This document shows, piece after piece, positions 1 to 34,884 of a DNA stretch of 64,000 nt. Under the pieces are notes generated by a model. The model did no database searches. It was not told the DNA's origin and saw nothing but the letters and a program-made list of their open reading frames with translations. Positions within the stretch are counted from its first letter, which is position 1. Each line of letters opens with the position of its first letter. The translations under genes and the position numbers were made by a program. Origin of the DNA: Candidatus Omnitrophota bacterium (GTDB lineage: Bacteria > Omnitrophota > Gorgyraeia > Gygaellales > Profunditerraquicolaceae); assembly GCA_028712375.1 (NCBI GenBank), contig JAQTQG010000004.1, positions 5,303 to 69,302 of the forward strand, read 5' to 3'.

Positions 1-2618
1 AAAATGATTTAAATAAAGTTGAATCAACATTAAATGATCAGCTGGCCGCTTTAACTAAGTCTAATCAGGAAACGGAAAACCGCCTGGTTCTTCTGGAAAA
101 GGATAAAGTTTCTTTAAAAGCCCAGCTTTTGCAAACAAATGATAACGCCAGATACGCGGAATTAAAACTGAATAATCAAATCAACGTTTTAGGCAAAGAA
201 GCTACTTCTTTAAAAGAACAGCTCGCCCAGGCAGAAAATAATTTAAAAGATACTAAGGCGCAATTAAGCGGACAGCTGGCAGCTTTAACTAAATCTAAGC
301 AGGAAACCGAAAACAACCTGGTTCTTCTGGAGAAAGAGAGAGATTTTTTAAAAGCCCAGCTTTTACAGGCCGCGGACAATGCCAGGTACGCGGAATTAAA
401 ACTGAACAGCCAAATTGCCGCTTTGAGCAAGGAATCGCTTTCTTTAAAAGAACAACTCACCCGGGCGGAAACTAATTTAAAAAATACTGAATCAGAATTA
501 AACGGCCAACTGACAGTTTTGACTAAATCCAAACAAGAGGTTGATGCCAAGCTTTCCCGCTTAGAAGCCAAGGTTATTCTGCAGGAAAAAGAGGCAGCTT
601 CCTTAAAAGAGCAGCTGGCGGCTTTAGATAAAACCAGGCTTGATTCCGAAAAGCAGCTGAAAGCCGAACTTTCCGGCTTGAGAGAAAAGCGGGCTTCCTT
701 AAGTAAGCAGTTGGCTGAATTGGGGAAAATTAAACTTGATTCAGAAAATAAATTAAGAACAGATATCGAGAGCCTGGAAAAAGAAAGGGCTTCTTTAAAA
801 GAATTGCTTATGCAGGCGGATGAGCGGTTAAAGAAGACAGAAGAAAGGTTAAATGATCAGTTGGCAGTTCTAACTAAATCTAAGTTGGAAACCGAAAGCC
901 GCCTGGCCGCCTTGGAAAAAGAAAAAATTGCTTTAAATAAACAGCTTACGGATTTAACCAAAGCTAAACTTGATTCTGAAAAGGAATTAAAAGGCGATTT
1001 GGATGACTTGCAAGCGGAAAAGAGTTCTTTAAAAGAACAGCTTTCGCAGACAGAGGCCAGCCTAAGGGATACTGATGCCAGATTAAATGAGCAGTTGGCA
1101 TCCTCCGCCCGGTACAAAGAAGAATCCGGCTCAAGAATCAGCCTTTTGGAAAAAGAGAAATACGCTTTGAAAGGGGATCTTTTCCAGGCAGAGAAAGCTG
1201 CCCGGGAAAAAGAAACGGAACTAAGCGATCAGTTGGCAGCTTTGACTAAATCCAAGCAGGAAGTGGAGGCCAGGCTTACTTTGGTGGGCAATGAAAGGAA
1301 TTCTTTAAAAGAGCAAATCGGTGTTTTGGAAAAGGCCAAGCTTGATTCCGAAAATAAAGCCAAGGCGGACCTGGCGATTGCCGCCGAGGAGAAATCTTTA
1401 TTAAAGAGGCAAATCAGCGCTTTGGAAGAAGATAAGCGCGATGCTGAAAATGAGCAGAATAATCTGATCAACTTTTTTAATAAACAGATCAGCGCCCTGG
1501 ATAAAGCTAAAACTGATTCCGAAAATAGATTAAAGGCGGATTTAGCCGCTTTAAGCCGTAAAAGCAAGGAAAGTGAAGATAAGTTAGCTGCGAAAATTTC
1601 TACCTTAACCATCGGCGAAGCTAACTTCAGGTCGGATATTGAACTGTTAAATAAAAGTAAAAAAGAAGCTGAAGATAAAATTAAGGCTTTAAAAGATGAA
1701 GCATCTTCTTTACAGGCGGGGTTTGATGAACAGATTGCTTCTTTAAATACCAGGATCAGCGCGCTTAATGATAAAAACACGGATTTACAGAATGAGCTGC
1801 AGACTAAGACAGAGGTGCTTAATTCTACTATGCGTTCGTCGAGCGAGGCAAAAGCCGGGGTAGAAACGTTGCTGCAGAATGAGATTGCCTCTAATACGGA
1901 AAAAGAACTTAGAATAAAAGAACTGGAAGCCAAAGTGAATGCTTTATTAAAAGAGGCGCCGGCTTATAAGGAACAGCTGGATGCTGTCGATAAAGCCAGG
2001 GAAGACGCAGAGTCAAAAGCGGCTTCCATAATTAAGTCTAAAGAAGATCTGGCTGCGGAATTTAACCGGCAGCTGTCAATACTCAAAGATGAAAAAAGGG
2101 AAGCGGAAATAAAATTAAAAAAGGAACTGATTACTCTTAAAAAAGAAAAAATAGAAATAGAAAGCCACTTAAAAAGCAGGATTGCCGGGTTGGAGAAGGA
2201 ATTAGAGAACAAAAAAATGAATATTGATCTGCCCGTGAATACTCCGGTGGTGATTGAGGAAAATATTGTAATAGATGAAACTGATGCGCAACCGGAGAAA
2301 CTAAAAATAGAGGCTATTGTGATTAAAGAGCCGGGGGCGGAATCTAAGAGCCAGCTGAAGCCGGATAAGAAGGCGGCCGGGAGGATAGTTTCTGGTTCCG
2401 TAATAAGCAAAGATCCGGCAAGCAAGGAAATTTTAGTCGATCTGGTAAAAGCTGATGGCGTGGTTTTAGGCCAGACTCTGGTAGTAGCGCATGAAAATGA
2501 AAAAGTCGCGGAGTTAAAAGTAATTAAGGTTTTGGATAGTTTTACGGTCGCCAGGGCCATATCGGATAGCGATTTTAAAGATATTGAATTGTTTGATAAG
2601 GTTGAGCTTACGCTTTAA
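1..2618 (+). CDS. Large coiled-coil repeat protein, 5'-truncated by window edge. The frame is open from nt 3, and the track start at 129 is an internal TTG.
   Basis: Continuous ORF in the frame of 129..2618, open back to position 3. Heptad-rich, Lys/Glu/Leu-rich translation with a recurring ~78-aa unit (NARYAELKLN..., LAALTKSKQE...). The C-terminal ~150 aa are non-coiled. Confidence 0.6.
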   Translation, partial: NDLNKVESTLNDQLAALTKSNQETENRLVLLEKDKVSLKAQLLQTNDNARYAELKLNNQINVLGKEATSLKEQLAQAENNLKDTKAQLSGQLAALTKSKQETENNLVLLEKERDFLKAQLLQAADNARYAELKLNSQIAALSKESLSLKEQLTRAETNLKNTESELNGQLTVLTKSKQEVDAKLSRLEAKVILQEKEAASLKEQLAALDKTRLDSEKQLKAELSGLREKRASLSKQLAELGKIKLDSENKLRTDIESLEKERASLKELLMQADERLKKTEERLNDQLAVLTKSKLETESRLAALEKEKIALNKQLTDLTKAKLDSEKELKGDLDDLQAEKSSLKEQLSQTEASLRDTDARLNEQLASSARYKEESGSRISLLEKEKYALKGDLFQAEKAAREKETELSDQLAALTKSKQEVEARLTLVGNERNSLKEQIGVLEKAKLDSENKAKADLAIAAEEKSLLKRQISALEEDKRDAENEQNNLINFFNKQISALDKAKTDSENRLKADLAALSRKSKESEDKLAAKISTLTIGEANFRSDIELLNKSKKEAEDKIKALKDEASSLQAGFDEQIASLNTRISALNDKNTDLQNELQTKTEVLNSTMRSSSEAKAGVETLLQNEIASNTEKELRIKELEAKVNALLKEAPAYKEQLDAVDKAREDAESKAASIIKSKEDLAAEFNRQLSILKDEKREAEIKLKKELITLKKEKIEIESHLKSRIAGLEKELENKKMNIDLPVNTPVVIEENIVIDETDAQPEKLKIEAIVIKEPGAESKSQLKPDKKAAGRIVSGSVISKDPASKEILVDLVKADGVVLGQTLVVAHENEKVAELKVIKVLDSFTVARAISDSDFKDIELFDKVELTL

Positions 2619-2647
2619 AGTTAATTAAGTTTATTTAAAATTAAAAT

Positions 2648-2687
2648 GGGCGTTTCCTTTGGTTTATAGAGGAAGCGCCCTTTTTTA
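2648..2687 (+). terminator. Rho-independent terminator after the coiled-coil gene
   Basis: GC-rich hairpin gggcgtttcc...ggaagcgccc followed by a tttttt tract. Confidence 0.5.
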
Positions 2688-2734
2688 GTTAGATTTGTTC
2701 TATCTCTGCGTCAATTGTAAGAGAGAGGATAAAA

Positions 2735-3415
2735 ATGGCTATTAATAATTGGCCTATAGAAGACCGGCCCAGAGAGAAATTAATTAAGTATGGTGAGCAC
2801 GCTTTAAGCAATTCTGAGTTATTGGCGATTATTTTGCGGACAGGCAGAAGCGGACAAAGCGCTTTAGATTTAGCAAGGGCGATCTTAGCCGTTTTTGGTT
2901 CATTCCGCCGGATTGGCCGGGCAGATTTATGCCATTGGAATAAAATAAAAGGTTTAGGCAATGCGAAAATCAGCCAGATTAAAGCCGCGATTGAAATAGC
3001 CAGAAGGTTTAGCGAAGAGAAGCTTAAGGAAAAGCGGGTAAAAATAAAATCCTCAGAAGACATTATTGCTATCCTTATGCCCAGGATGCAGGATTTAACC
3101 AAAGAAATATTTAAGGTTTTGTTTTTGGATTCGCAAAATAGAATAATCGCTATCGCGGAAATAGAGGAGGGCTCAGTGGATCAGGCAAAACCCATCATCA
3201 GGGAGGTGTATCAAAAAGCCCTGCAGAAACAGGCATCGTTTATTATCTGCGTGCATAATCATCCTTCGGGTAGCCCCCGGCCCAGCCGCCAGGATAGGCA
3301 GTTTACCCGGGCTTTAGTGACAGCCGGAGAGAGCTTATCTATAAAATGCCTGGATCATATAATTATCGGAAATGGGCGGTATTTTAGTTTTTCGGATCAG
3401 GGAATTATTCGATAA
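2735..3415 (+). CDS. radC: RadC-like JAB-domain protein (UPF0758/DUF2466), copy 1
   Basis: 226 aa. N-terminal HhH-like LSNSELLAIILRTG and a C-terminal JAMM-type motif HNHPSGSPRPSRQD, typical of RadC. Confidence 0.85.
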   Translation: MAINNWPIEDRPREKLIKYGEHALSNSELLAIILRTGRSGQSALDLARAILAVFGSFRRIGRADLCHWNKIKGLGNAKISQIKAAIEIARRFSEEKLKEKRVKIKSSEDIIAILMPRMQDLTKEIFKVLFLDSQNRIIAIAEIEEGSVDQAKPIIREVYQKALQKQASFIICVHNHPSGSPRPSRQDRQFTRALVTAGESLSIKCLDHIIIGNGRYFSFSDQGIIR

Positions 3416-3626
3416 AATAGCGAAGGGTTTTCTTATAGACCGCCGCGAATTCATTCAGCTGGACGGTGTCCACGCGGCGCTGCCCGGCTTCAATCTTGGA
3501 GACGTAGGATTGTGTCTTGCCTAATTTCTTAGCCACATCTGCCTGTTTAAGCTTAGCGTTTTTACGCGCCTTGATTAAACGGGCGACTAAATCCTGATGC
3601 GCTTTCGTAAAAATCGTTTTATCCAT
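3405..3626 (-). CDS. XRE-family helix-turn-helix transcriptional regulator
   Basis: 73 aa with a KQADVAKKLGKTQSYVSKIEAGQR HTH_3 signature. Convergent with radC and divergent from the S74 gene. Confidence 0.8.
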   Translation of the reverse strand: MDKTIFTKAHQDLVARLIKARKNAKLKQADVAKKLGKTQSYVSKIEAGQRRVDTVQLNEFAAVYKKTLRYFIE

Positions 3627-3668
3627 CTGCTTGACACCTCTTGTTTTTTATGATAACTTGTTTTAGTT

Positions 3669-3689
3669 AATATTCCAAAATGGAATATT
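3669..3689. promoter_or_regulatory. Perfect 9-3-9 palindromic operator AATATTCCA-AAA-TGGAATATT in the divergent intergenic region
   Basis: Exact inverted repeat seen in the sequence between the XRE regulator start (3626) and the S74 gene start (3729). Confidence 0.5.
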
Positions 3690-3728
3690 AGATTTTAGCA
3701 GAAAATCCTAGAGCAGGAGGCTTAAACT

Positions 3729-4787
3729 ATGTCAAATTTAAGGTTTGTGATGATTTTACTTTTATTGTTTTTTCCGGTTTTTATTTTTGCCGAGGAAGTT
3801 ACAATTACTACTTATTATCCTGCGCCTTATGGAGTCTATCGGGAATTAAGAGCTACGCGTATTGCCATCGGAGATAATTATATTCAAAGCGGTACTTATG
3901 ATTGGGAGATTACCGACGGAGATGGAGGGGAGGTTGACTCCCTGGCGGACTTAGTGGTGGAAGGCAATGTTGGTATTGGGACAGCGAGCCCCGGAACGAA
4001 GTTAGAGTTAAAGGGTGGGCATGGGGATACTTTACTAAAGCTTTATTCGATTGGAGACGGTGCTTCTGGTGACGCGACACTTAATTTATGGGCGAGTGAG
4101 CCAGGTTGGACTTATACTGGGGCAGGGATTGGTAATAATATAAATAAAAGCGCTTATTATGGAAGATTGAATACGGCTAGAGGAGCATCTTATATAAGGT
4201 TATTAGATAATGCTATTTATTTTGATACTATTAATAGTGCAGGAGCAGATGTGGTCAATTTATTTCTTTCGGCTGGCAACGTTGGCATCGGCACGACGAG
4301 CCCTACCTATCAATTACAGCTTTCGACAGACTCCGCAGCTAAGCCTTCCACTAATACCTGGACGGTTGCCTCTGATATGCGGATTAAAAAAGATATCCGT
4401 CCCTATACGAACGGCTTAGAAATAATCAAAAAGATCAAGCCAGTTTGGTTTAAATACAATGGTAAGGGCGGATTTGCCCAGGACAACCAGGATCACGTGG
4501 GAGTTGTTGCGCAGGAGATTGTTAAAGCCGCTCCTTATACTATTAATACTTTTCGGGCGAAATTGAATCCTGAAGATAAGGAAGAAACCGAGCTTTTAAA
4601 CTTCAATTCCCATGCTTTAACCTTTGACCTGATTAACGCAGTCAAGGAGTTGGATGGTAAGGTTACCGATCTTGCCCGGGAAAACCAGGAATTAAGAGAA
4701 GCGAATAAATGGTTAAAATCTGCGATTGAAACTTTAAAATCCCAAGTAACCTGCCTGGAAGCAAATATGGCATCGGGATTATTCTAA
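3729..4787 (+). CDS. Secreted tail-fibre-like protein with a Peptidase_S74 (intramolecular chaperone / endosialidase chaperone) C-terminal domain
   Basis: N-terminal signal peptide (MSNLRFVMILLLLFFPVFIFA). Duplicated GNVGIGTxSP...L motif typical of tail-fibre repeats. SDMRIKKDIRPY auto-processing-site-like motif followed by a C-terminal coiled coil. Confidence 0.7.
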   Translation: MSNLRFVMILLLLFFPVFIFAEEVTITTYYPAPYGVYRELRATRIAIGDNYIQSGTYDWEITDGDGGEVDSLADLVVEGNVGIGTASPGTKLELKGGHGDTLLKLYSIGDGASGDATLNLWASEPGWTYTGAGIGNNINKSAYYGRLNTARGASYIRLLDNAIYFDTINSAGADVVNLFLSAGNVGIGTTSPTYQLQLSTDSAAKPSTNTWTVASDMRIKKDIRPYTNGLEIIKKIKPVWFKYNGKGGFAQDNQDHVGVVAQEIVKAAPYTINTFRAKLNPEDKEETELLNFNSHALTFDLINAVKELDGKVTDLARENQELREANKWLKSAIETLKSQVTCLEANMASGLF

Positions 4788-12121: not shown

Positions 12122-12201
12122 TATATTAGCGGGTCCCCGCCACAAAGCTTGGCGGGCAGGCTGCCGATGATGCAGTTATCGTCATGCGCTAATATCTATG
12201 T

Positions 12202-18111: not shown

Positions 18112-18168
18112 GGCACCCGGCGCTAATCGGTATTGCGCCGGTGTCGTTTAGGTAAACGAGGAGGATAA

Positions 18169-21485: not shown

Positions 21486-21947
21486 ATGAAAAAGAAAATC
21501 CAGCAGCATAAACGCCCTAGTTGGGATGAATATTTTTTAGAGATGGCCGGGTTAGTGGCTAAACGTTCCACCTGCTTGCGCCGCAGCGTGGGCGCAGTTT
21601 TAGTCAGAGACAAAAGAATTCTGGCTACCGGTTACAATGGCGCTCCCAGCGGACTGGAACATTGTTTTGAGGTCGGCTGCCTGCGTTTAAAATTAAAAGT
21701 TCCTTCCGGAGAGCGCCATGAATTATGCCGCGCCCTGCATGCAGAGCAGAATGCGTTAATCCAGGCATCTTTACACGGGATAAGCGTTAAAGGCGCTACT
21801 TTATATGCTACCACGCAGCCCTGTGTGATTTGCGCTAAAATGCTGATTAACGCCGGGATAAAAGAGATTGTAATTACTGAAGGCTATCCGGATAAAATGG
21901 CGATGGATTTTTTAAAACAGGCGAAAATTAAAGTAAGGAAGTTATAA
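21486..21947 (+). CDS. dCMP deaminase (ComEB-like)
   Basis: 153 aa. Zinc-binding HAEQNAL and PCVICAKML motifs. Confidence 0.85.
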
Positions 21948-22414
21948 TGCGTTGTCCTTTTTGTGGATTTAAAGAAGATAAAGTAGTCGATTCCCGCGCA
22001 ACCGCCGAGGAGTCCGCGGTCAGGCGCAGAAGAGAGTGCCTAAAGTGCGGCAAGCGTTTTACTACTTATGAATATGTCGAAGAGACTTCTTTGCTGGTAA
22101 TTAAGAAAGACGGCCGCCGCGAAGCTTGGGATCGTAAAAAAGTTTTAGCCGGGATTATCCGGGCTTGCGAGAAGAGGCCGGTGAGTGTGGAGAAGATGGA
22201 AGAAGTGGTGACGCAAGTGGAGCACGCCATTCAAAAGAAAAGCGACCGGGAAGTGCAAGCCAGCCGGATTGGCGAGCTGGTCATGGAACGCTTAAAATTA
22301 ATTGATGATGTAGCTTACGTGCGTTTTGCCTCCGTGTACCGACAGTTTAAGGATGTGGGGCAGTTCATGGTAGAGTTGAAGGATATTCTGGGTAAAGATA
22401 AAAAGAAGAAGTAA
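21947..22414 (+). CDS. nrdR: Transcriptional repressor NrdR
   Basis: N-terminal zinc ribbon MRCPFCG...CLKCGKRF followed by an ATP-cone. Confidence 0.9.
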
Positions 22415-22420
22415 ATCTTT

Positions 22421-22520
22421 GGCGGGTCCTGTCTTGGGTATTATTGCATGGACACACCTCGCGCTAATTGGAATTGCGCGAGTGTTCGCCAGGTGGCGAA
22501 AAATACCCAAGCCACCCGCC
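22421..22520 (+). ncRNA. Candidate structured RNA or regulatory element (three-way-junction-like), unclassified
   Basis: Long closing stem ggcgggtcctgtcttgggtat / atacccaagccacccgcc. It encloses hairpin ctcgcgc-TAATTGGAATT-gcgcgag and hairpin ttcgcc-aggt-ggcgaa. No ORF. Strand is uncertain. Confidence 0.3.
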
Positions 22521-22671
22521 ATTTAATTTTTAAGCTTTACTCAGAATAAGGGCTGGGAGATAGGGGCGAGATGCTATTGTGAGGAGTCTGCCTAGGTTCT
22601 GTGGCGGACGACGCCTGCCCGTCACGGTTTGTGGCGGGAAGCAATCTAATAAAACCTAATAAAGTTTAAGT

Positions 22672-22708
22672 AAAAAAAGCCGTTTCTTTTAAGGAAACGG
22701 CTTTTTTG
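22672..22708 (+). terminator. Rho-independent terminator (looks bidirectional)
   Basis: aaaaaaa-gccgtttc-ttttaa-ggaaacggc-tttttt hairpin flanked by A and T tracts. Confidence 0.5.
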
Positions 22709-22789
22709 TTGTTATTTTGTTAGATTTGACCTTTTTTTGCGTCAATTATTGTAGGAAAAGAATAATAACGCGAGAAAGGAGAGGGCAAA

Positions 22790-23818
22790 ATGAAAAGCGC
22801 AATAAGCGAAGAATATATTGATTTCTTGAATGAAATAAAATCGCGCATTGTTACGGCGCGGGTTCAAGCGATTAGGTCGGTCAATAAAGAGCTTATAAAA
22901 TTATATTGGGATATTGGCAAAACTATTGTACAGAGGCAGAAGAAATATAGGTGGGGAGATGCGGTAGTTGTGAAACTCGCCAACGATTTGAAAGAAGATT
23001 TTAAAACAACATTTGGCTTTTCAACCCAAAATCTCTGGTATATGCGTCAATTTTATCTTGAATACAAAGAAGACTCAATTCTCCAACAGCTTGTTGGAGA
23101 ATTACCGTGGGGGCATAATATACTTATTTTCTCCCGGATCAAAAACAAAATAGAAAGAGAATATTATTTAAAGTCATCGGCACAGATGGGTTGGTCAAGA
23201 AATGTCCTTCTTAATCAGATTAAGGCCGGCGCCTATCATTATCAAAAAAGTATGTTGAAACAGCATAATTTTTCAAAAGCTCTCCCGGTTTATCTTAATG
23301 AGCAGGCGGATGAATCCATCAAAAGCGTTTATAACCTGGATTTTCTGGATATCACAAAATCCGTAGTGGAGCGGGAGCTAGAACGCCGCCTTGTAGAAAA
23401 AATTAAGCGTTTTATGCTCGCATTGGGTAAAGGGTTTTCATTTCTTGGCCACCAATATCGTCTCGCGTTGAGGAATAATGAATATTTTGTTGACCTTTTG
23501 TTTTTTAACCGGGTATTGAAATGCTTGGTGGCGGTTGAGCTTAAGACTGGCAAGTTTGAGCCTGAATATGCCGGGAAGATGGATTTTTACCTGCAGCTAT
23601 TGGATGAACAAATAAAGCTGAAAGATGAGAATCCGTCAATAGGCATTATTCTGTGCGCGGCTAAGGATAATATTGTAGTTGAGTATGCCTTGCGCAGTGT
23701 TAAAAAGCCGATAGGAGTTGCTGAATACTATCTTACTAATAAACTTCCTAAATATTTGGCTGGAAAACTTCCTGATGCCAGCGCATTGAGGCTACCGATA
23801 CGAGAGGAATTAAGATAG
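22790..23818 (+). CDS. DUF1016/YhcG-family PD-(D/E)XK nuclease
   Basis: 342 aa. N-terminal region ELIKLYWDIGKTIV...FGFSTQNLWYMRQFYLEY is typical of DUF1016. C-terminal D...ELK motif (VDLLFFNRVLKCLVAVELKTGKF). Confidence 0.75.
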   Translation: MKSAISEEYIDFLNEIKSRIVTARVQAIRSVNKELIKLYWDIGKTIVQRQKKYRWGDAVVVKLANDLKEDFKTTFGFSTQNLWYMRQFYLEYKEDSILQQLVGELPWGHNILIFSRIKNKIEREYYLKSSAQMGWSRNVLLNQIKAGAYHYQKSMLKQHNFSKALPVYLNEQADESIKSVYNLDFLDITKSVVERELERRLVEKIKRFMLALGKGFSFLGHQYRLALRNNEYFVDLLFFNRVLKCLVAVELKTGKFEPEYAGKMDFYLQLLDEQIKLKDENPSIGIILCAAKDNIVVEYALRSVKKPIGVAEYYLTNKLPKYLAGKLPDASALRLPIREELR

Positions 23819-23838
23819 TTACAGTAGAAGGATAAGCT

Positions 23839-24522
23839 ATGACGAGGCAAAACCTAACTATCCGCGATCTGCCCAGGATTGAGCGCCCGCGGGAGAAACT
23901 TATAAAATACGGAGCAAGCAGGCTTTCAAATATAGAATTGTTAGCGATTCTCTTGCGTACAGGTAAACAAGGGGAGAGCGTTTTAGCTTTTGCTGCTCGC
24001 TTTCTGCGTCTGATCAGCTTAGAAAAAATAACCGATCTATCATTTGAAGAATTTAGAAAGGTCTCAGGCATTGGCCCGGCTAAAGCTTGTGAATTGCTTT
24101 CTTGTGTGGAGCTTGGCCGCAGGATTTTTGAGCATAAAAAGGCCCAAATCTCCCAATTACTTTCCCCGGAGGATGTATTTAACAATCTAAAGGATGTCCG
24201 TTTAAGTAAAAAGGAACACTTTGTGGTTTTCTTCCTGGATTCCCGTAATCAGGAGATTAAGCGTGAGATCATTTCGGTTGGCACGATTAATGCCAGCCTG
24301 GTCCATCCGCGGGAGGTTTTTGAGCCGGCAGTGAAATACTTGGCGGTACAGATCATTCTTGCGCACAACCATCCTTCCGGCACCCTGGAGCCATCCGAGG
24401 ATGATTTGGCGGTGAATAAGCGTTTAACTGAAGCCGGGAAAATCCTGGGGATAGAAGTCCTTGATCATATTATCGTTACTAAAGACAGCTTTATTAGTTT
24501 TAAAGAAAAGGGGCTATTATGA
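23839..24522 (+). CDS. radC: RadC-like JAB-domain protein, copy 2
   Basis: 227 aa. LSNIELLAILLRTG HhH and HNHPSGTLEPSEDD JAMM motif. Paralogous to 2735..3415. Confidence 0.85.
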   Translation: MTRQNLTIRDLPRIERPREKLIKYGASRLSNIELLAILLRTGKQGESVLAFAARFLRLISLEKITDLSFEEFRKVSGIGPAKACELLSCVELGRRIFEHKKAQISQLLSPEDVFNNLKDVRLSKKEHFVVFFLDSRNQEIKREIISVGTINASLVHPREVFEPAVKYLAVQIILAHNHPSGTLEPSEDDLAVNKRLTEAGKILGIEVLDHIIVTKDSFISFKEKGLL

Positions 24523-24845
24523 AGAAAAAAGAATTTGACAAGGCACATAAAAGTATATACAATTGTATATACTTTGAATCGGGGAAAATGCTCTCTGGCC
24601 CAATAAGGTGGAATGCGTTAAAGAATATCCGCTTGAAGCTAACCCGGCGTATATCTTTTGAAGAAATTATACATGCTAGATTATTAGATCTTACTGATCA
24701 TCCGAATCGAAGTGACCAAAAAATCTTGGTATGTGAATATAAGGGATATGTGTGGGTAGTGCCATTTATTTTTGAAGAGGATGGTGTTTTTCTAAAAACC
24801 ATATATCCAAGCCGTAAGTATAAAAAATCTTATGAGAAAGGTTAA
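24519..24845 (+). CDS. brnT: BrnT-family (DUF497) ribonuclease toxin
   Basis: 108 aa. W..KN....ISFEE...D...HPNR...EYKGY.WVV.F..EED..FL.TI.PSRK..K.YE pattern resembles DUF497. Start overlaps the radC stop. Confidence 0.6.
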   Translation: MKKKEFDKAHKSIYNCIYFESGKMLSGPIRWNALKNIRLKLTRRISFEEIIHARLLDLTDHPNRSDQKILVCEYKGYVWVVPFIFEEDGVFLKTIYPSRKYKKSYEKG

Positions 24846-25116
24846 TCTTATGAAAAAGAAAGATGATTTTATTAAAAGTATTAAATTAACTAAAGAAGAG
24901 CAGTGGATAGAAGATCATATGGAAGAATTCGTCCCAATAAAAGGCCCGGAGTATGATTTTATCGTAGCTTCCATAGAGCGCAAGAAGAAGGAAATGGTTT
25001 TGAATATGCGCATTAACCGGGACGATCTGGAAGCGATTAAGCAAAAAGCCCGCAAAGCCGGGATTAAATACCAGACGCTTATCTCCGAGATTCTGCACAG
25101 GGTCGCCCAAAATTAA
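24832..25116 (+). CDS. brnA: BrnA-family antitoxin (ribbon-helix-helix C-terminus)
   Basis: 94 aa. Overlaps the brnT end. C-terminal LEAIKQKARKAGIKYQTLISEILHR matches the BrnA GIPYQ.LI..LH signature. Confidence 0.6.
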   Translation: MRKVNLMKKKDDFIKSIKLTKEEQWIEDHMEEFVPIKGPEYDFIVASIERKKKEMVLNMRINRDDLEAIKQKARKAGIKYQTLISEILHRVAQN

Positions 25117-25418: not shown

Positions 25419-28400
25419 ATGCATACAGATCTAACATTCTTTACTAATGAGAAAGATTCAACCTTGCTCCAGCGTTTTAAGGTAACTCTAGAGAATAACA
25501 CTCAATTTTTTGATGTCTTAGTTGGTTATTTTCGCACTAGCGGTTTCTTTCATTTGTATAAATCGCTGGAAAAAGTTGAGAAAATTCGTATTCTCGTTGG
25601 AATTAATGTGGACAGGCAGACTCACGACCTCACCGTGAAAGCCAAAGAAGATCAGCTATCGATTAAATTCTCCCACAAAGAAGCTAAGGATACTTTTTCT
25701 GAGCAAGTAGCGCGTGAAATGGAAGAATCTGAGGATAATGTCGATGTTGAACTTGGCGTCCAAAAGTTTATTGAGTTTATTAAATCCGGAAAACTCCAAA
25801 TCCGCGCTTATCCCTCCGGAGATATTCACGCCAAGGTTTATATAATCCGCAAAGATATTAATAAAAGTGAGGATTATGGGCGGGTGATTACTGGTTCAAG
25901 CAATTTTTCATATTCCGGCCTGCATGATAATTTAGAGTTTAACGTCGAACTTAAAGATAGTAGGGATGTTAAATACGCCCTGGAGAAGTTTGAAGAACTC
26001 TGGAAAGACGGAGTTGATATCTCCGAAAAATATGTTGAAACCATTAATGAAAAGACCTGGCTTAATGATACCATTGTGCCTTACGAACTTTATCTGAAAT
26101 TCCTTTATGAATATTTTAAAGAAAAGATCAACGAGGATATGGACTCGATCTACAAAGATAAGCGTTTCCTTCCTGAGGGATTCATGGATCTAGAATATCA
26201 GGATGAAGCGGTCAAGGATGCTTTAACTAAGCTGGGTGATTACGGTGGGGTATTTCTGGCTGATGTTGTCGGTTTAGGTAAAACTTACATTTCTGCTTTA
26301 CTTGCTCAGCAGTTAGAGGGCTATACTTTGGTTATTTGTCCGCCGGTACTTATGGATTACTGGCACGATACGTTTAGAGACTTTGGCGTTCGTGGTTTTG
26401 AAGTTGAATCTTTAGGGAAATTAGACAAACTTATTGAGAATGGGGTTGAGAAATACCGGAACATCTTCATCGACGAAGCGCATCGCTTTAGAAACGAAAC
26501 CAATCAGACTTATGAGAAGCTTAAACAAATTTGTTGGGGAAAAAGGATAATCTTGGTGTCCGCAACTCCATTGAATAACACGCCGTTTGATATCTTGAGT
26601 CAGATTAAACTTTTTCAGAAAGGCCATAACAGTACCATCCCTAATGTTCGCGATCTTGATAAGTTCTTTGCTGGATTGCAGAAGAAACTAAAATCCGTAG
26701 ACCGTAAGGAAATTAAGAATTATCTCAAATTGGTCAAAGAGAACTCTTTGATTATCCGGGAAAATATCCTTAAATATCTTATGGTAAGAAGGACCAGGAC
26801 TGAAGTTTTGAAATATTTTAAGAAAGACCTACAACAGCAGAGGTTGAAATTCCCGGAAGTTGCCGAACCAAGACGAGTCTATTATCAGTTTGACGCGCAG
26901 CTTGATAAAATCTTTATGCGTACTATTGAGTTGATTAAAAATTTTAAATACACCCGCTATATGCCGCTGTTATATTTAAAGAACCCTGATCCACAGGAAG
27001 TATCCGGTCAGCGCAACCTCGGGCGTTTTATGCGTATATTGCTAGTCAAGCGATTGGAAAGCAGTTTCTACGCTTTTAAGATGACCCTGGATAGATTTAT
27101 TCATTCTTACGATGTCTTCATCAAAATGCTTGATAAAGGTACAATTTATATCAGCAAGAAACACAGTGAGAAGATCTACGAAGCCTTAGAAAATGATGAC
27201 ATAGACAGGATCATGGAATTGGTTGAGCAAGATAAAGTGCAGAAATACGAAGCCAATGATTTTGGTAAACCGTTTAGAGAGAATCTAAAAGATGATTTGG
27301 ATATTCTTCTTGAGATGAAGAAGCTGTGGGATGGTGTTCAAGCTGATCCCAAGATTGATCAATTTAAATCAATTCTTACCAAGGATAAGATACTTAAAGA
27401 AAATAAGCTGATAATTTTCACTGAATCCAAGGAAACTGCCGAGTATTTAGATAGGAATTTAAGGCAAGAATTCGGTGATAAAGTTATATCTTATTCCAGT
27501 AAATCCAGCGCATCGGTCCGTGAAACGATAATTGATAACTACGATCCGAAGCACAAGAACCAAAAAGACGATATCCGTGTTCTTATCACTACCGATATCT
27601 TGGCCGAAGGCGTTAATTTGCACCGCGCCAATGTAGTTATTAATTATGATATCCCCTGGAATCCTACTCGAGTTTTGCAACGTGTAGGCCGCGTTAACCG
27701 TGTTGATACCAAATTTGATGATATCTACGTCTATAACTTCTTTCCCTCGGTTCAGGGCAACAATGAAATCAAGCTGGAAGAAGCGGCCATAGCTAAGATT
27801 CAGGCTTTTCATGATACGCTTGGCGAAGACGCACAATATCTAACCGAAGGCGAGGAGTATACTTCTCATGAGTTGTTCAATCGTTTGAATTCCCAAAAAC
27901 TCTTGGCAGAAGGTGGGGAGGAAGATGAAGATTCAGAATTGAAATATCTTTCTGAGATCAGGGATATCCGGGATAACAATGCTGCTTTATATGAAAAGAT
28001 AAAACGCCTGCCCAAGAAAGCCCGCAGTGCCAAAGTGTATCCTGATTTTAAGGAAGCAGTGGTTACGTTCTTTAAGAAAGGCAAATTGCGAAAGATTTAT
28101 ATTGCTGACGCGAAGGAAGCTAAAGAACTCGATTTCTTCAATGCCGCCGTAATTTTAAAATCTGAAAATACGAAAAAGAAAGAAAAGCTTGCCGCCGATT
28201 TTTACAAGCTTTTGGCTCAAAACAAGGATCAGTTCAAGCTTGCCACTACCGAAGAAGCGCGTGAATTCAAGCAGGAAGGCGGCCGCAGCAATGAGATAAC
28301 GCTTGTTAGAACAATTAAAGCCATTAAGAAGTTTTCTGGGTTTACGGATGAGGACGAAGAATACTTGGAAAGAGTGTTAAAAGCCTTAGAAGAGGGAGCT

Positions 28401-28586
28401 TTACCTAAACAGACTAGTAAAACTCTAGTTAAACAGATAAAAGGGGAAAGCAATCCTTTGAAAATTCTTTTCAAGTTTAAGCAGGGGATCCCGCATAATT
28501 TCTTCTCTGAAGGATTTGTAGATAATCCATATTATAACACGGCTCCCAGAGAAGTTATTTTGTCAGAATATTTGATTAATAAATAA
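25419..28586 (+). CDS. Fusion of an N-terminal PLD-family (HKD) nuclease domain with an SNF2/SF2 helicase (DEAH box)
   Basis: 1055 aa. HKD motif DIHAKVYII...ITGSSNFS. Walker A LADVVGLGKTYI. DEAH box IFIDEAHRF. Helicase-C motifs ITTDILAEGVNLH...NYDIPWNPTRVLQRVGRVNR. Confidence 0.85.
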   Translation: MHTDLTFFTNEKDSTLLQRFKVTLENNTQFFDVLVGYFRTSGFFHLYKSLEKVEKIRILVGINVDRQTHDLTVKAKEDQLSIKFSHKEAKDTFSEQVAREMEESEDNVDVELGVQKFIEFIKSGKLQIRAYPSGDIHAKVYIIRKDINKSEDYGRVITGSSNFSYSGLHDNLEFNVELKDSRDVKYALEKFEELWKDGVDISEKYVETINEKTWLNDTIVPYELYLKFLYEYFKEKINEDMDSIYKDKRFLPEGFMDLEYQDEAVKDALTKLGDYGGVFLADVVGLGKTYISALLAQQLEGYTLVICPPVLMDYWHDTFRDFGVRGFEVESLGKLDKLIENGVEKYRNIFIDEAHRFRNETNQTYEKLKQICWGKRIILVSATPLNNTPFDILSQIKLFQKGHNSTIPNVRDLDKFFAGLQKKLKSVDRKEIKNYLKLVKENSLIIRENILKYLMVRRTRTEVLKYFKKDLQQQRLKFPEVAEPRRVYYQFDAQLDKIFMRTIELIKNFKYTRYMPLLYLKNPDPQEVSGQRNLGRFMRILLVKRLESSFYAFKMTLDRFIHSYDVFIKMLDKGTIYISKKHSEKIYEALENDDIDRIMELVEQDKVQKYEANDFGKPFRENLKDDLDILLEMKKLWDGVQADPKIDQFKSILTKDKILKENKLIIFTESKETAEYLDRNLRQEFGDKVISYSSKSSASVRETIIDNYDPKHKNQKDDIRVLITTDILAEGVNLHRANVVINYDIPWNPTRVLQRVGRVNRVDTKFDDIYVYNFFPSVQGNNEIKLEEAAIAKIQAFHDTLGEDAQYLTEGEEYTSHELFNRLNSQKLLAEGGEEDEDSELKYLSEIRDIRDNNAALYEKIKRLPKKARSAKVYPDFKEAVVTFFKKGKLRKIYIADAKEAKELDFFNAAVILKSENTKKKEKLAADFYKLLAQNKDQFKLATTEEAREFKQEGGRSNEITLVRTIKAIKKFSGFTDEDEEYLERVLKALEEGALPKQTSKTLVKQIKGESNPLKILFKFKQGIPHNFFSEGFVDNPYYNTAPREVILSEYLINK

Positions 28587-28587
28587 G

Positions 28588-31500
28588 ATGAAAAATCTGG
28601 TAAGGCAGACCTTAGAGAGAGATTTTGATCTTCCGCAATATACCGAATTCGTAAAAAATCTATTTAATGAGATTCAAATTCAGCCCCAAGAAATCAAAGT
28701 CCCTGACAGCTCTCAAGAATTTATCAAGAAAATAACATTTCTTTCTGAATTCTCTGATACTCAGAAGAAAACCATAGATGTTTATGCAGTTGAGCTTGTC
28801 GGCGGCACAAAAGTAGAGCGCGCCCGTTCCTTTCAACGTAACATTATTTCAAAACTGCTCAAGGATAACACTAAAGACGCTGGATTAGTGGCTTTTTACT
28901 CTAAGGATAACCCTGACTGGCGGCTATCTTTTATTAAACTGGACTATAAACTGACTGAAAAGGGCGTTAAAGTTGAAGTCGGTACTCCCCCTAAGCGTTA
29001 TTCCTTCCTGGTAGGCAAATCAGAGCCTTCTCACACTGCTCAGAAGCAACTTTTGCCAATCCTGGAAGATCAAAAGAGTAATCCGCTACTTTCAGATTTG
29101 GAAGTAGCTTTCAGTGTTGAAAGAGTAACCAAGGAATTCTACGAGCGCTACAGAAAATTATTCGAAGAGCTCTCTAAAGACTTAAAGAAAAATAAAGCAT
29201 TTCAGATCATTGCTGAAAAAGAAAATATTGATATTGATAACTTTGCTAAGAAATTACTTGGTCAGATAGTATTTTTATATTTTCTGCAGAAAAAGGGTTG
29301 GATAGGAGTGCCCCAGGATAAGTCATGGGGTCAGGGAGATAAGTTCTTCTTGACGCATCTGTTTAGCAAAGCGAAAGCCGGGAAACAAGATTTCTATGAT
29401 CATTATCTTGAGCCTCTTTTCTACGATACGTTGAATAATCCACGTCGCGATGAGGTCGACCCCGCATACTCGCGTTATTTTGACTGTAAAATCCCATTCT
29501 TAAACGGCGGTTTATTTGAGCCTGACTATGATTGGAAAAATACCCTTGTTTATCTTGGAAATGATATTTTTGAAGAAATCATTGATACTTTTGATCTTTA
29601 TAACTTCACTGTTAAAGAAGATGAACCGCTGGAAAAAGAGGTTGCGGTTGACCCGGAGATGTTGGGTAAGGTCTTTGAGAATCTTCTTCTTGAGAACATG
29701 CGCAAAGGCCAGGGCGCGTATTATACGCCCAGAGAAATTGTGCATTATATGTGCCAGGAAAGCCTCATTAATCATTTAAATACGGAAACTAAAGTTGATG
29801 CCGACAGAATAAGAAAGTTGATCGCTTTTAAAGATGAAGATTTGGTAAATGGCAATGGTTCGCGAAAAAAAGCCTTGGGATTTTCTGATGGTGAGGCTCA
29901 AAGCCTTGACTGGGCCTTAGCAAATATTAAAGTGTGCGATCCTGCCTGTGGTTCAGGAGCTTTCTTAGTGGGTATGCTTAATGAAATCGTCAGCGCCAGG
30001 CGAATTCTAGAACCGCGCTCGGAATATAAGCTCAAGAAGGAAACGATTCAGGAATGTATCTATGGCGTTGATATTGATCCCGGCGCAGTAGATATCGCGA
30101 AACTTCGCCTTTGGTTAAGTTTAGTTGTTGATTTCGAACTCAGGGATATTGAGCCTTTACCGAATTTGGATTATAAGATAATGTGTGGCAATAGCTTAAT
30201 TGAAGAGTTGATTGTTGGGGAAGAATCAATCAAGTTATTTGACGAGCGGCTGTTAAACATTAAAGAATTTAAAAACACTCCTCCGCAAGATGTGAGACTG
30301 GAAGAATTAAAAGAACAGTTTAAGGAGAAGCAGAAAGAATTACTTGAACTGCATGCCATGAATAAGCTTAGTATGGTGAAGAAAAATGAGCTTGATCTTC
30401 AGATTCGAACAATCAGTAAGGAACTTAACCCTATAGCGAAAAAAACAAAGTCTGAACCGTATCATCCGGTTTTATTTACTGATCAGGCAGATATATATTT
30501 TCAACGTCTTCGAGAGTTGCATAGACAGTTTTTTACCGAATATGATCCAATCAAAAAGAAGGGTCGGCGTAAGCAGATTGAAGAGATTGAGCTCGAGTTT
30601 ATTAAAAGCTCGATTAAAGAAAAAGTGGATGAGCTTGACTCAAAGATTCAAAATCTGAATATGCAAGATTCGCGAGATAGAAATAAACAAGCAGTATTGA
30701 TGAAAAAAAAGCTTGAATATTTAGCTGTTCCGGATCAGATGCGCAATTCAAAAACGAAGCCATATTTCTTGTGGAAGATGAATTTTTTCGAAGTATTCCA
30801 GGAAAAAGGTGGATTTGATGTTGTAATAGCTAATCCACCGTACGATGTTTTAAATGAAGCAGGAAACAATAGAGATCAAAGAAATTTCCTAGATTTAATT
30901 AAAAGGGGGAGATTATTTGAACATTCCCTCGGAGGAAAAATTAATCTATTTAGACTATTTATAGAAAAGGGATTTTATTGCACAAGAAAAAATGGTTTCC
31001 TGACCTATATAGTACCAAGTACGATATTAGCAGATAAAGGAACTACAAATATACGAAAATTGTTGGCGAATAATACAACAGTAAGGTTCTTTTTAGAGTT
31101 TCCCGAAAAAAGTAAAGTGTTCGAAAGCGTTACGCAGGCAGTAGCTATTTTCTTGTTTCAAAAAAAAATCGAGAATAATAATTTCTTTATCTCAACAAAC
31201 ATTCAATCTCAAAACTTGCCTCCGGAAGAAAAATTTTTTACTAACTGGTTAGAAATAAAACAGATTTCAGGAGACGACTTAGCCATTCCTTTGGTCAAGA
31301 ATGCTAAAGAATACGCAGTTTTAGGTAAAATGCTGACCAATAATATACCTTTGGGCAAACTAGTGGAAATTAAGCAAGGCGATATTAATTTAACTTTTCA
31401 TAAAATGTTTCTGTCCGATAAGCCATCGGAAAGAATTTTGGTAAGAGGAGAACATATTCAAAGGTTTCGCGTTAATTTAGATACATTAGATAAGGATCGT

Positions 31501-32028
31501 AGATGGGTCGATTGGGAAGCAATGAAAAGAGAATTAGGGGAACTTAAAATTGAAACAATAAGGATAAATTCTAGCGTTGAACGTATTGTTCTCCAGCAGG
31601 TTGCAAATATGGGTCTAGAGAGAAGGATTGTTGCTTCAATTATTCCCCGAGACGTTATTGTCGGAAATTCAGCTAATTTTATAATACCTAGGAAAGATTA
31701 TGAACGTGTTGATATGCAATCGATATTAGCCATATTATCATCCAAAGTTATAAACTGGAAATTTAAAAAAACTAGTACAAATAATCATGTAAATATATAC
31801 GAATTAGAAAATCTTCCATTTCCCAAGCAGCTTTTAAAAGAGAAAAATGATTATCTTGGTAAATTGGTTACAGAAATTCTTAATATTACGCGAGAGGAAA
31901 GCTATTTGGCTAATGCCAGCATGCAAGCTAAGGTCAAAGAATATGATCGTCTGATCGACCAAATCGTATATAAACTTTATGGACTTACTCTTGATGAAAT
32001 TAAACTAGTAGAGAATTTCAATAAATGA
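28588..32028 (+). CDS. Large gamma-class N6-adenine DNA methyltransferase with C-terminal TRD-like region (Eco57I/PglX/DrmMI-like)
   Basis: 1146 aa. IPFLNGGLFE helical-domain motif. Motif X GAYYTPREIV, motif I DPACGSGAFL, LPNLDYKIMCGNSL, and motif IV VIANPPYDV. Start is 1 nt after the upstream stop (translational coupling). Confidence 0.85.
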   Translation: MKNLVRQTLERDFDLPQYTEFVKNLFNEIQIQPQEIKVPDSSQEFIKKITFLSEFSDTQKKTIDVYAVELVGGTKVERARSFQRNIISKLLKDNTKDAGLVAFYSKDNPDWRLSFIKLDYKLTEKGVKVEVGTPPKRYSFLVGKSEPSHTAQKQLLPILEDQKSNPLLSDLEVAFSVERVTKEFYERYRKLFEELSKDLKKNKAFQIIAEKENIDIDNFAKKLLGQIVFLYFLQKKGWIGVPQDKSWGQGDKFFLTHLFSKAKAGKQDFYDHYLEPLFYDTLNNPRRDEVDPAYSRYFDCKIPFLNGGLFEPDYDWKNTLVYLGNDIFEEIIDTFDLYNFTVKEDEPLEKEVAVDPEMLGKVFENLLLENMRKGQGAYYTPREIVHYMCQESLINHLNTETKVDADRIRKLIAFKDEDLVNGNGSRKKALGFSDGEAQSLDWALANIKVCDPACGSGAFLVGMLNEIVSARRILEPRSEYKLKKETIQECIYGVDIDPGAVDIAKLRLWLSLVVDFELRDIEPLPNLDYKIMCGNSLIEELIVGEESIKLFDERLLNIKEFKNTPPQDVRLEELKEQFKEKQKELLELHAMNKLSMVKKNELDLQIRTISKELNPIAKKTKSEPYHPVLFTDQADIYFQRLRELHRQFFTEYDPIKKKGRRKQIEEIELEFIKSSIKEKVDELDSKIQNLNMQDSRDRNKQAVLMKKKLEYLAVPDQMRNSKTKPYFLWKMNFFEVFQEKGGFDVVIANPPYDVLNEAGNNRDQRNFLDLIKRGRLFEHSLGGKINLFRLFIEKGFYCTRKNGFLTYIVPSTILADKGTTNIRKLLANNTTVRFFLEFPEKSKVFESVTQAVAIFLFQKKIENNNFFISTNIQSQNLPPEEKFFTNWLEIKQISGDDLAIPLVKNAKEYAVLGKMLTNNIPLGKLVEIKQGDINLTFHKMFLSDKPSERILVRGEHIQRFRVNLDTLDKDRRWVDWEAMKRELGELKIETIRINSSVERIVLQQVANMGLERRIVASIIPRDVIVGNSANFIIPRKDYERVDMQSILAILSSKVINWKFKKTSTNNHVNIYELENLPFPKQLLKEKNDYLGKLVTEILNITREESYLANASMQAKVKEYDRLIDQIVYKLYGLTLDEIKLVENFNK

Positions 32029-34680: not shown

Positions 34681-34747
34681 TTGCTCACCAAAAGGGAGTA
34701 TCCCTTTTTCATATACAACTCAAAGGGTATATGTTAAGTGGGGCTTT

Positions 34748-34826
34748 GGGCGGCTGGTGGAATGGCAGACACACAAGCCTTGAAAGCTTGTGGACTTAGG
34801 TCCGTGAGGGTTCGACTCCCTCGCCG
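34748..34826 (+). tRNA. tRNA-Ser (anticodon TGA)-like gene with a non-complementary 3' acceptor strand. Possibly truncated, a pseudo-tRNA, or an att junction.
   Basis: 5' acceptor gggcggc, then tg. D-arm gtg/gaatggcaga/cac. Anticodon arm caagc-cttgaaa-gcttg (TGA at positions 34-36). Long variable arm ggac-tta-gtcc. T-arm gaggg-ttcgact-ccctc. The following 7 nt are gccggaa, not the expected gccgccc. Confidence 0.55.
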
Positions 34827-34884
34827 GAAATTATTTGAAAGATTAACATAGATTTTTCAATTGATTCAAGCAGGAGGCATAGGA

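Follow-up and report, generated by a model that had tools for sequence, protein, structure and literature searches.

In streptococci, ComX/SigX acts at the cin-box (com-box), the sequence of which is TACGAATA, and in staphylococci and lactobacilli, SigH takes this role; the genes under such control include comEA/EC, dprA, recA, radC and a DNA methylase gene. The CRP-S motif marks comEA (comE1), comM, dprA, radC and genes related to these; it is palindromic and serves as an activator site together with the housekeeping sigma factor. The SigW-type ECF promoter of Bacillus subtilis, TGAAAC-N16-CGTA, serves an envelope stress regulon. Omnitrophota are mostly ultra-small uncultured bacteria and, to our knowledge, the regulation of natural transformation is known for a few cultured lineages (ComK, ComX/SigH, TfoX-CRP) and not for candidate phyla.

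Control of scattered competence genes by a dedicated alternative sigma factor with a specific promoter has been described (PMC6560143, PMC3364868), as has the Sxy/TfoX-CRP 'CRP-S' competence regulon of Pasteurellaceae and Vibrionaceae (PMC5809987). Both the DdvS/DdvA system of Myxococcus xanthus and the craspase-linked RpoE system (Csx29 TPR-CHAT, Csx30/31) combine an ECF sigma factor, a zinc (CHCC) anti-sigma domain and a TPR-CHAT caspase-like protease (PMC11506125, PMC6061681, PMC10028731). The full-text literature, the coverage of which is incomplete, yielded no Omnitrophota competence regulon or promoter and no ECF sigma factor over competence genes; searches for Omnitrophota together with competence, ECF or comEC returned nothing relevant, and no report of transformation was found.

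Here, we analyze a short bipartite motif in a 64-kb window (the whole stretch of Omnitrophota DNA under study), where an earlier note had placed it upstream of two cassettes that contain radC. From sequence comparison, we consider it probable that this motif is the promoter of a phylum-specific ECF-type sigma factor that switches on a competence-like regulon in Omnitrophota.

The motif in the window and the genes that follow it

The 29-nt pattern GTTAGATTTG-N9-TGCGTCAATT is present at exactly two places in the window, 2688-2716 and 22719-22747, both on the plus strand, so that the identical 9-nt spacing reported for the two cassettes holds to the letter. No further copies were found in the 64 kb with up to 3 mismatches permitted, and none of 100 dinucleotide-preserving shuffles of the window contained a match (chance expectation, 0). 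Because each 10-mer half alone occurs in the window at chance frequency, the signal resides in the pair at fixed spacing. With a position weight matrix trained on 154 related sites, copy 1 scored 33.1 bits and copy 2 scored 42.1 bits; no other site in the window exceeded 8 bits, and the best score in 20 shuffles was 8.1. The features of the two motif-bearing units are as follows.

2648..2686, plus strand: intrinsic terminator at the end of the preceding coiled-coil gene (129-2618); hairpin 2648-2680 with a 14-bp stem containing 7 GC pairs, then TTTTTT
2687..2693, plus strand: copy 1, predicted −35 element AGTTAGA (consensus TGTTAGA); GTTAG is kept in every anchored site except L022
2694..2708, plus strand: copy 1, 15-nt spacer from GTTAGA to CGTC; sequence free, pyrimidine-rich
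2709..2716, plus strand: copy 1, predicted −10 element CGTCAATT (consensus gCGTCWATT); CGTC core, no TAnnnT with a conserved final T
2719..2724, plus strand: putative transcription start region of radC1, placed by ECF promoter geometry and Shine-Dalgarno offset
2735..3415, plus strand: radC copy 1 (radC1), core orthologue and first gene after copy 1; Pfam RadC 3.5e-42, NCBIfam RadC 243.9 bits (cut-off 180)
22673..22713, plus strand: intrinsic terminator closing both the nrdR transcript and a structured non-coding stretch that precedes copy 2; hairpin 22673-22707 with a 16-bp stem, T-run
22718..22724, plus strand: copy 2, predicted −35 element TGTTAGA
22740..22747, plus strand: copy 2, predicted −10 element CGTCAATT, exact pattern
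22790..23818, plus strand: DUF1016/YhcG PD-(D/E)XK nuclease gene, first of the copy-2 operon; Pfam YhcG_C 1.3e-60, DUF1016_N 9.7e-45
23839..24522, plus strand: radC copy 2 (radC2), accessory paralogue, starting 20 nt past the DUF1016 gene
24519..24845, plus strand: BrnT-like toxin gene; in another locus (L009), a BrnT-like gene with 63% identity to it carries a motif copy itself
24832..25116, plus strand: BrnA/CopG-like antitoxin gene; Pfam CopG_antitoxin and BrnA_antitoxin matches

Each copy thus follows a hairpin with a T-run, and the genes downstream are radC copy 1 and DUF1016-radC copy 2, both as the earlier note had described; the two RadC proteins, which had been estimated there to be about half identical, share 38% identity. 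The T-run of the first terminator abuts copy 1 and provides the A/T-rich stretch that is typical upstream of most sites. Copy 1 (2687-2716) fills the entire gap between the end of this terminator and the radC1 ribosome-binding site (Shine-Dalgarno at ~2722-2729, ATG at 2735). Given that the terminator ends at 2686, the motif takes up 2687-2716 and the Shine-Dalgarno sequence comes next, there is no space for another radC1 promoter; as judged from this layout, the promoter of radC1, if the gene has one of its own, must be copy 1. Downstream of copy 2, brnT and brnA overlap radC2 and each other and are, therefore, probably part of the radC2 transcript.

A scan for the sigma-70 consensus from each terminator to its gene detected no plus-strand promoter. 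Elsewhere in the window, intergenic regions show classical housekeeping promoters, for example before purB (TGCTATAAT; 5004) and before the gene at 50596 (TTGTAA-17-TATAAT). A general Omnitrophota housekeeping promoter was considered as the identity of the motif and rejected: TTGaca/TATAAT is the promoter form used in other intergenic regions and by the sigma gene described below, and there are only 2 motif sites in 64 kb. At the gathering threshold, the Rfam search of the window returned only a tRNA-Ser, and at a relaxed threshold, only sub-threshold matches at the terminator region, so that the motif corresponds to no known RNA. Exact-sequence look-up of the RadC1 and DUF1016 proteins returned no record. 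Searching the window by tblastn with ComEA, ComM, DprA, RecA, sigma, anti-sigma, CHAT, ORF6N and other regulon proteins gave no match; because the sigma query found nothing, the sigma locus lies elsewhere in the source genome.

Conservation and distribution of the motif

The generalized form of the motif is (T)GTTAGA-N15-CGTC(W)ATT, i.e. rigid, bipartite and asymmetric, and the consensus of the pooled sites is TGTTAGATTtt-N-GCGTCTATT; no palindrome, dyad, direct repeat or duplicated core was found within it. T occupies motif position 0 in 89% of the pooled sites. Several informative features lie outside the search pattern, namely, T at spacer position 17 (86%), R at +30 (the first position after ATT) and an A/T-rich tract at −9..−2. 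The purine immediately after ATT corresponds to part of the trailing (A)TTGTARG that the earlier note had included in the motif; the remainder of that extension is weakly conserved across relatives. A purine-rich Shine-Dalgarno signal occupies +35..+42, beginning 6-7 nt past the motif in the aligned sites.

Conservation was assessed in surveys anchored on proteins (RadC, ComM and the sigma factor), which are independent of scan-pattern ascertainment. A protein with 100% identity to RadC1 is encoded by a Candidatus Omnitrophica MAG, and orthologues of RadC1 are dense at 62-86% identity; where named, nearly all of these are from Omnitrophica/Omnitrophota. Orthologues with the motif span 64-86% identity. 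The motif was identified upstream of 22 of the 23 metagenomic radC orthologues surveyed, counting a variant (L022) in which GTGAGA replaces GTTAGA and which is the sole anchored site without GTTAG; one locus (L010) is the only one of the 23 in which the motif is absent. GTTAG(A/G) and CGTC(A/T)(A/G)TT were found at 21 of the 23 loci, separated by 15 nt at all of these but L014, where the spacer is 16 nt. The distance from the motif to the start codon ranges from 5 to ~76 nt, and the motif is conserved much better than the flanking non-coding DNA. No motif was detected at the genes of RadC relatives from other phyla (35-45% identity, L026-L046). Occurrence at random sites without positional bias, or absence from orthologues, had been named in the earlier note as outcomes that would speak against a functional site; the presence at nearly all radC orthologues, combined with a positional bias (see below), favors function.

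A similar survey of comM homologues, which were chosen independently of the motif, revealed GTTAGA-N15-CGTC 25-87 nt upstream of all five; four of these five sites would escape the pattern used in the genome scan. Across the anchored sites, with spacers of 14-16 nt permitted, the spacer is 15 nt in 30 of 31 cases (21/22 for radC, 4/4 for sigma and 5/5 for comM), and CGTC is present in every one.

The genome-wide search proposed in the earlier note was run over 185,579 species genomes with the pattern TGTTAGAWW-N12-GCGTCWATT (33 bits), in which 18 positions are fixed. At least 118 loci were found; among the matches listed, 99 come from 66 Omnitrophota assemblies, a count that takes in records labelled 'Planctomycetales' or 'bacterium' with the same gene families. 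About 17 of the listed loci are scattered over other phyla, as chance predicts, and two come from a 'Patescibacteria' MAG, where the downstream genes fit the regulon. Genomes have up to 5 of the listed loci each, some with several sites. Among the Omnitrophota sites listed, 71 of 95 are followed, within 130 nt, by the start of a same-strand ORF of 80 aa or more (median distance 23 nt), and only 5 of 95 are inside ORFs; the corresponding numbers for the non-Omnitrophota sites listed are 5 of 16 and 8 of 16. The motif is always oriented toward the downstream gene. The search hence bore out a positional bias, and what had been taken for a site belonging to RadC cassettes is a phylum-wide signal that precedes dozens of unrelated genes.

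To characterize these genes, the first ORFs were clustered and then scanned against Pfam and NCBIfam; the family counts given here come from the Pfam scan of 108 first ORFs among the matches listed. They comprise Y1_Tnp (IS200-like; 13), ORF6N (12), HHH_3, i.e. ComEA-like proteins of 109 aa (11), Bro-N (8), Mg_chelatase/YifB, i.e. ComM (7), N6_N4 methylase, Gp49/HigB-like and BNR/Sortilin (4 each), zf-HC2 anti-sigma-like (3 by Pfam, within a cluster of 9, in which the 7 loci checked adjoin a sigma gene), BrnT (2), RhuM/Fic (2), RecA (2, with near-identical sites) and DprA (1 as first gene). DUF1016 is also present among the listed first ORFs, and one motif-preceded DUF1016 gene is found in L075. 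Among the second genes of the listed matches, ComEC (PF03772 + DUF4131) follows comEA in 5 loci, and a CHAT+TPR gene follows the anti-sigma-like gene in 4 loci; genes further downstream include a second dprA and two dprA-topA pairs. For dprA (2 sites) and recA (2 near-identical sites), the samples among the matches listed are thin. The top Pfam families among the downstream genes sampled included neither type IV pilus or pseudopilus genes nor comF, and no cas or CBASS genes came up in the listed targets. One temperate-phage-like element carries a motif copy near its integrase.

A single motif accordingly marks comEA, comEC, dprA, comM, recA and radC, the pattern expected of a competence regulon. 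We use the label 'competence-like' because the core of the regulon consists of genes classically involved in transformation, which the ComX, SigH and Sxy regulons also contain; given how many of the targets are mobile-element or defence-like genes, the label could also be 'foreign-DNA/stress response'. Because the loci listed are a lower bound and the pattern fixes 18 positions, the regulon proportions represent a biased sample.

The sigma factor locus and the promoter reading

In seven motif-anchored loci (L052, L056, L114, L134, L140, L159 and L169), the motif lies between an ECF-type sigma gene and a zinc anti-sigma gene. The gene that ends at or overlaps the motif specifies an ECF-type sigma factor of ~200 aa at each of the seven, as a truncated ORF in the case of L052; in L114, it occupies 2458-3057. 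In several of these loci, the TAG within GTTAGA is the stop codon of the sigma gene. The protein matches Sigma70_r2/r4 and TIGR02937 (75.6 bits, cut-off 42.9); its best PDB relative is SigW (5wuq, E 4.4e-7), and the NCBIfam SigW models match it below their cut-offs. It has 664 homologues, and every named one is from Omnitrophica/Omnitrophota. When four sigma homologues (61-63% identity) were fetched without regard to the motif, the motif was found between sigma and anti-sigma in all four, within a shared gene order of H+-pyrophosphatase, usually an opposite-strand Y1_Tnp gene, sigma, anti-sigma and CHAT-TPR; in three of the four, the divergent Y1_Tnp gene has its own motif copy. Upstream of the sigma gene itself, the promoters are of the TGnTATAAT form.

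The anti-sigma protein contains an invariant H-x3-C-x2-C together with an upstream Cys, which is the zinc anti-sigma signature (C-H-C-C); its Pfam zf-HC2 matches are marginal (E ~1e-4), and it appears to be soluble. The third gene encodes a CHAT-TPR protein of ~735 aa, and a His and a Cys of its CHAT domain are invariant. Consecutive genes with Pfam matches to Sigma70_r2/r4, zf-HC2 and CHAT+TPR are what a TPR-CHAT-gated ECF module would look like. With the CHAT-TPR protein as query, a sequence search of the PDB returned only generic TPR matches, and with the anti-sigma protein, it returned nothing; no homology of either to DdvA, Csx29 or Csx30 was found by this search. Because the motif precedes the anti-sigma gene and not the sigma gene, the arrangement is not classical positive autoregulation; the placement of the motif would provide for feedback on anti-sigma only.

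The motif has the layout of an ECF promoter, with two short blocks separated by a rigid spacer within the ~14-17 nt range (GTTAGA-N15-CGTC at 30 of the 31 anchored sites) and a −10 block that belongs with CGT(C/A), not with TATAAT, and in which the final T of TAnnnT is not conserved; the geometry matches an ECF promoter when the motif is read as TGTTAG-N16-CGTC. The 'AAC' core that is typical of the −35 of most ECF promoters was not found in the −35 block, which is TGTTAGA. Because this block departs from the common consensus, the motif would be a variant ECF promoter; because the housekeeping promoters of the window and of the sigma gene are TTGaca-17-TATAAT or TGnTATAAT, it would be of a different class from those. 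The pairing of this sigma factor with this promoter is likely, on the grounds of adjacency and co-distribution. We infer that transcription starts at the motif, that the ~200-aa sigma factor reads it, that the CHAT protein gates the response and that its output is competence.

Under this model, the sigma gene would be transcribed constitutively from an ordinary housekeeping promoter, and the anti-sigma protein would hold the sigma factor inactive until a signal brings about its release, possibly via the CHAT protease with its His/Cys dyad, as in DdvA/DdvS and craspase/RpoE. The freed sigma factor would then direct RNA polymerase to TGTTAGA (−35) and gCGTCWATT (−10), 15 nt apart, with transcription beginning a few bases downstream of CGTCWATT. 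Copy 1 would give rise to a short-leader radC1 mRNA starting at ~2719-2724, and copy 2 to a DUF1016-radC2-brnT-brnA mRNA (22790-25116) starting at ~22750-22755. One part of the regulon would consist of DNA-uptake and recombination genes (comEA-comEC, comM, dprA-topA, recA and radC), and the other of the anti-sigma gene along with accessory genes, namely, ORF6N, Bro-N, Y1 transposase-like, toxin-antitoxin, DNA methylase and DUF1016 genes; the motif before the anti-sigma gene would provide negative feedback.

Several other readings of the motif were weighed. That it is a transcription-factor site (ComK/TfoX-like or XRE), with the housekeeping sigma factor using WATTAT as a weak −10 element, strikes us as unlikely. 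TATTAT or AATTAT, which resemble TATAAT, do follow CGTC in some sites, but the final T of such a −10 lacks conservation, with TATTAG, TATTAA and TATTGC all common, and the best-kept bases are GTTAG and CGTC, not TAnnnT. The XRE gene at 3405-3626 is convergent to radC1 and conserved beside it, and the earlier note had suggested its product as the binder; however, no XRE genes were found at the other motif sites, whereas the motif is carried by the ECF sigma/anti-sigma locus. The motif is, furthermore, asymmetric, lacking a dyad or direct repeat, and locked in orientation. Far less probable still is a LexA-like operator of an SOS-type DNA-damage regulon, a reading that has in its favor the presence of recA, radC and DinD-like Bro-N among the targets. 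Known LexA boxes are palindromes or direct repeats, and the motif is neither; such an operator would not be expected to keep a strict orientation and a fixed start-codon offset, SOS regulons do not typically include comEA-comEC, comM or dprA, and no lexA gene was seen near any site.

We give hardly any credence to a recombination or attachment site that mobilizes single-gene cassettes. Several loci (L075, L098, L103 and L106) do contain runs of accessory genes, each gene with its own copy, and the phage-like element with a copy near its integrase could be read in the same way. Against this, the motif accompanies core genes in conserved synteny throughout the phylum (radC, comM and anti-sigma), no inverted repeats or duplicated core flank any element, the Shine-Dalgarno offset is fixed, and the 20 kb between the window copies contain housekeeping genes (purB, purL-like, rpiB, glyA and nrdR). 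The specific case of an island bounded by the two copies, 20,031 bp apart, as attL and attR was rejected on account of these intervening genes. Just as implausible is an element acting at the RNA level, i.e. a processing or regulator-binding site in the 5'-leader of read-through transcripts: the motif does lie immediately upstream of ribosome-binding sites, but it follows efficient-looking terminators, the spacer lacks conserved pairing, the two short blocks are at a B-DNA-type spacing, and no Rfam family exceeded the threshold at the site. Among the operator, promoter and attachment options raised in the earlier note, the bipartite, oriented and conserved character of the motif thus favors the promoter, and the XRE-operator and attachment options gained no support.

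The reading as an ECF promoter can be extended to a single switch, which we offer as a tentative proposal, less probable than not in its full form: natural transformation of Omnitrophota would be under one ECF sigma factor, kept in check by a soluble zinc anti-sigma protein and released by a membrane-anchored CHAT-TPR caspase-like protease, and mobile and defence genes would have adopted the promoter, timing their expression to the entry of foreign DNA. The adopters in this proposal are ORF6N, Bro-N, the domesticated Y1 transposase, toxin-antitoxin pairs, methylases and the integrase-proximal phage gene.

Comparison with described systems

A competence regulon under an alternative sigma factor is a known kind of system, and we classify as new the combination of an ECF sigma factor, a zinc anti-sigma protein and a CHAT-TPR protein in an uncultured phylum; if the single-switch proposal is correct, this would be the first ECF-sigma-controlled competence regulon, and a protease-gated one. 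A 30-nt signature across at least 66 Omnitrophota genomes would define a regulon that is readable from sequence alone, and the candidate master regulator (sigma, anti-sigma and CHAT protease) would be open to testing in a heterologous host, with no need for Omnitrophota cultures. The motif would also provide a handle for finding in metatranscriptomes when Omnitrophota become competent. The sharing of a host DNA-uptake promoter by mobile and defence genes would bear on the interplay between transformation and genetic parasites, and the recently recognized pairing of a CHAT protease with an ECF sigma factor would be extended beyond the CRISPR and CBASS contexts.

In regulon content, the ComX/SigX and SigH systems overlap strongly with the targets of the Omnitrophota motif. 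The cin-box, TACGAATA, is, however, unrelated to the Omnitrophota consensus, and whereas ComX and SigH are under peptide-pheromone control, the Omnitrophota sigma factor belongs to the ECF type and has a zinc anti-sigma protein and a CHAT/TPR protein as partners. The ComX/SigH regulons are competence regulons; that of Omnitrophota belongs to a different phylum and is competence-like in its gene content. The CRP-S system resembles the Omnitrophota arrangement in that one motif precedes competence genes, but CRP-S is palindromic, whereas the Omnitrophota motif is asymmetric and promoter-like and shows no match to the CRP-S palindrome.

SigW promoters have the same geometry as TGTTAG-N16-CGTC, with a short CGT-type −10 and a rigid spacer. 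The two differ in the −35 core (TTAG in Omnitrophota vs. AAAC for SigW) and in the regulon, which concerns DNA uptake and recombination in Omnitrophota and envelope stress in the case of SigW; in addition, the Omnitrophota anti-sigma appears to be soluble, and the motif lies before the anti-sigma gene and not before the sigma gene. The DdvS/DdvA and craspase-RpoE systems are like the Omnitrophota module in that the output consists of genes that deal with foreign nucleic acid. In contrast to DdvA and craspase, the Omnitrophota anti-sigma and CHAT-TPR proteins are encoded by separate genes, the domain order is CHAT and then TPR, and the regulon, among the listed targets of which no CRISPR or CBASS genes were seen, is centered on competence genes.

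Genes and structured DNA around the two motif copies

The order radC, convergent XRE gene and secreted-protein gene, seen at radC1 (the radC gene behind copy 1 of the motif, a predicted ECF-type sigma promoter), is kept in the radC orthologue loci L001, L005 and L009. In the window, this secreted protein contains a Peptidase_S74 (endosialidase chaperone) domain. The large flanking ORF consists of diverged repeats of 234 nt (78 aa) each, rich in coiled-coil-like sequence, and had no Pfam match.

Genes flanking radC1 in the window
1-2618, + strand: large ORF, listed part 829 aa, may extend past the window start
3405-3626, - strand: XRE gene, convergent to radC
3729-4787, + strand: secreted-protein gene, N-terminus MKK..ITITTYYPSPYG

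Features around motif copy 2 in the window
22415-22672, + strand: non-coding stretch, 258 nt, between nrdR (21947-22414) and the terminator preceding motif copy 2
12136-12161 and 22613-22638: GC-rich 26-nt segment CCCGCCACAAAGCTTGGCGGGCAGGC, second copy inverted, 88% complementarity
25419-32028, + strand: region after the radC2-brnTA operon (DUF1016-radC2-brnT-brnA), up to tRNA-Ser at 34746-34829

The predicted fold of the 258-nt stretch (-95.9 kcal/mol) is much more stable than those of shuffled sequences (z = -3.57), and Rfam gave no above-threshold match for it. A structured 3' UTR is one possible reading of the stretch, a small RNA another. Both copies of CCCGCCACAAAGCTTGGCGGGCAGGC lie in non-coding DNA, 10 kb apart, the second within this structured region. 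Two large proteins are encoded directly after the operon, a PLD-nuclease/SNF2-helicase protein of 1055 aa and an Eco57I/MmeI-type methylase-specificity protein of 1146 aa, followed by four ORFs without family matches and the tRNA-Ser gene; with motif copy 2 as its left edge, the whole stretch resembles a defence island or an integrated one.

A recurrent conserved hairpin

Copies of the hairpin
window 18113-18145
window 22454-22486
L180 (comM locus) 1440-1480, in the comM leader
L062 near 4797, - strand

These 4 copies, the number present in 1.08 Mb of Omnitrophota DNA, share a consensus of stem arm CACC-YSGCGC, loop TWATYGGWAT and stem arm GCGCSR-GGTG. Between copies the loop is conserved, and the stems covary in a compensatory manner (CCGCGC/GCGCGG, CGGCGC/GCGCCG, TCGCGC/GCGCGA). 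Possible identities are a REP-like element and an RNA hairpin that binds a protein. Y1 (RAYT-like) transposase genes belong to the regulon, i.e. the genes downstream of the motif across Omnitrophota.

The motif in accessory-gene arrays and phage-like elements

L075 1773-6044; L098; L103 3059-4241; L106 4782-6660: runs of accessory genes
L185 353-520 (example), - strand: ORF of 53-58 aa, MISLTT.WWNWRHRKLIEETKRI..., motif 9-18 nt upstream

Each run comprises two or three consecutive genes, every one preceded by its own motif copy, from the families DUF1016, Bro-N, DUF4062-HATPase_c_4, ORF6N and BrnT, and resembles a series of cassettes, each under its own promoter. In the viral collection (IMG/VR), all seven motif matches (L182-L188) precede the same short ORF. 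This ORF is close to the end of an element resembling a temperate phage, which encodes a 1339-aa structural protein; the element may tie the timing of a switch to the sigma regulon of its host. Judged by eye, a 341-aa ORF of this element is a putative reverse transcriptase and, in L188, a neighbouring 330-aa ORF a putative integrase.

A Y1 transposase gene beside the sigma gene

L170-L176, about 3346-3843, - strand: IS200-like Y1 transposase gene, 160-227 aa

This gene is syntenic with the adjoining gene for the candidate ECF-type sigma factor in several genomes, carries the motif as its own predicted promoter, and looks domesticated rather than mobile. Y1 transposases also account for 13 first-ORF matches downstream of the motif in L052-L169. 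The substrate of Y1/HUH enzymes is single-stranded DNA, and transforming DNA enters the cell in single-stranded form.
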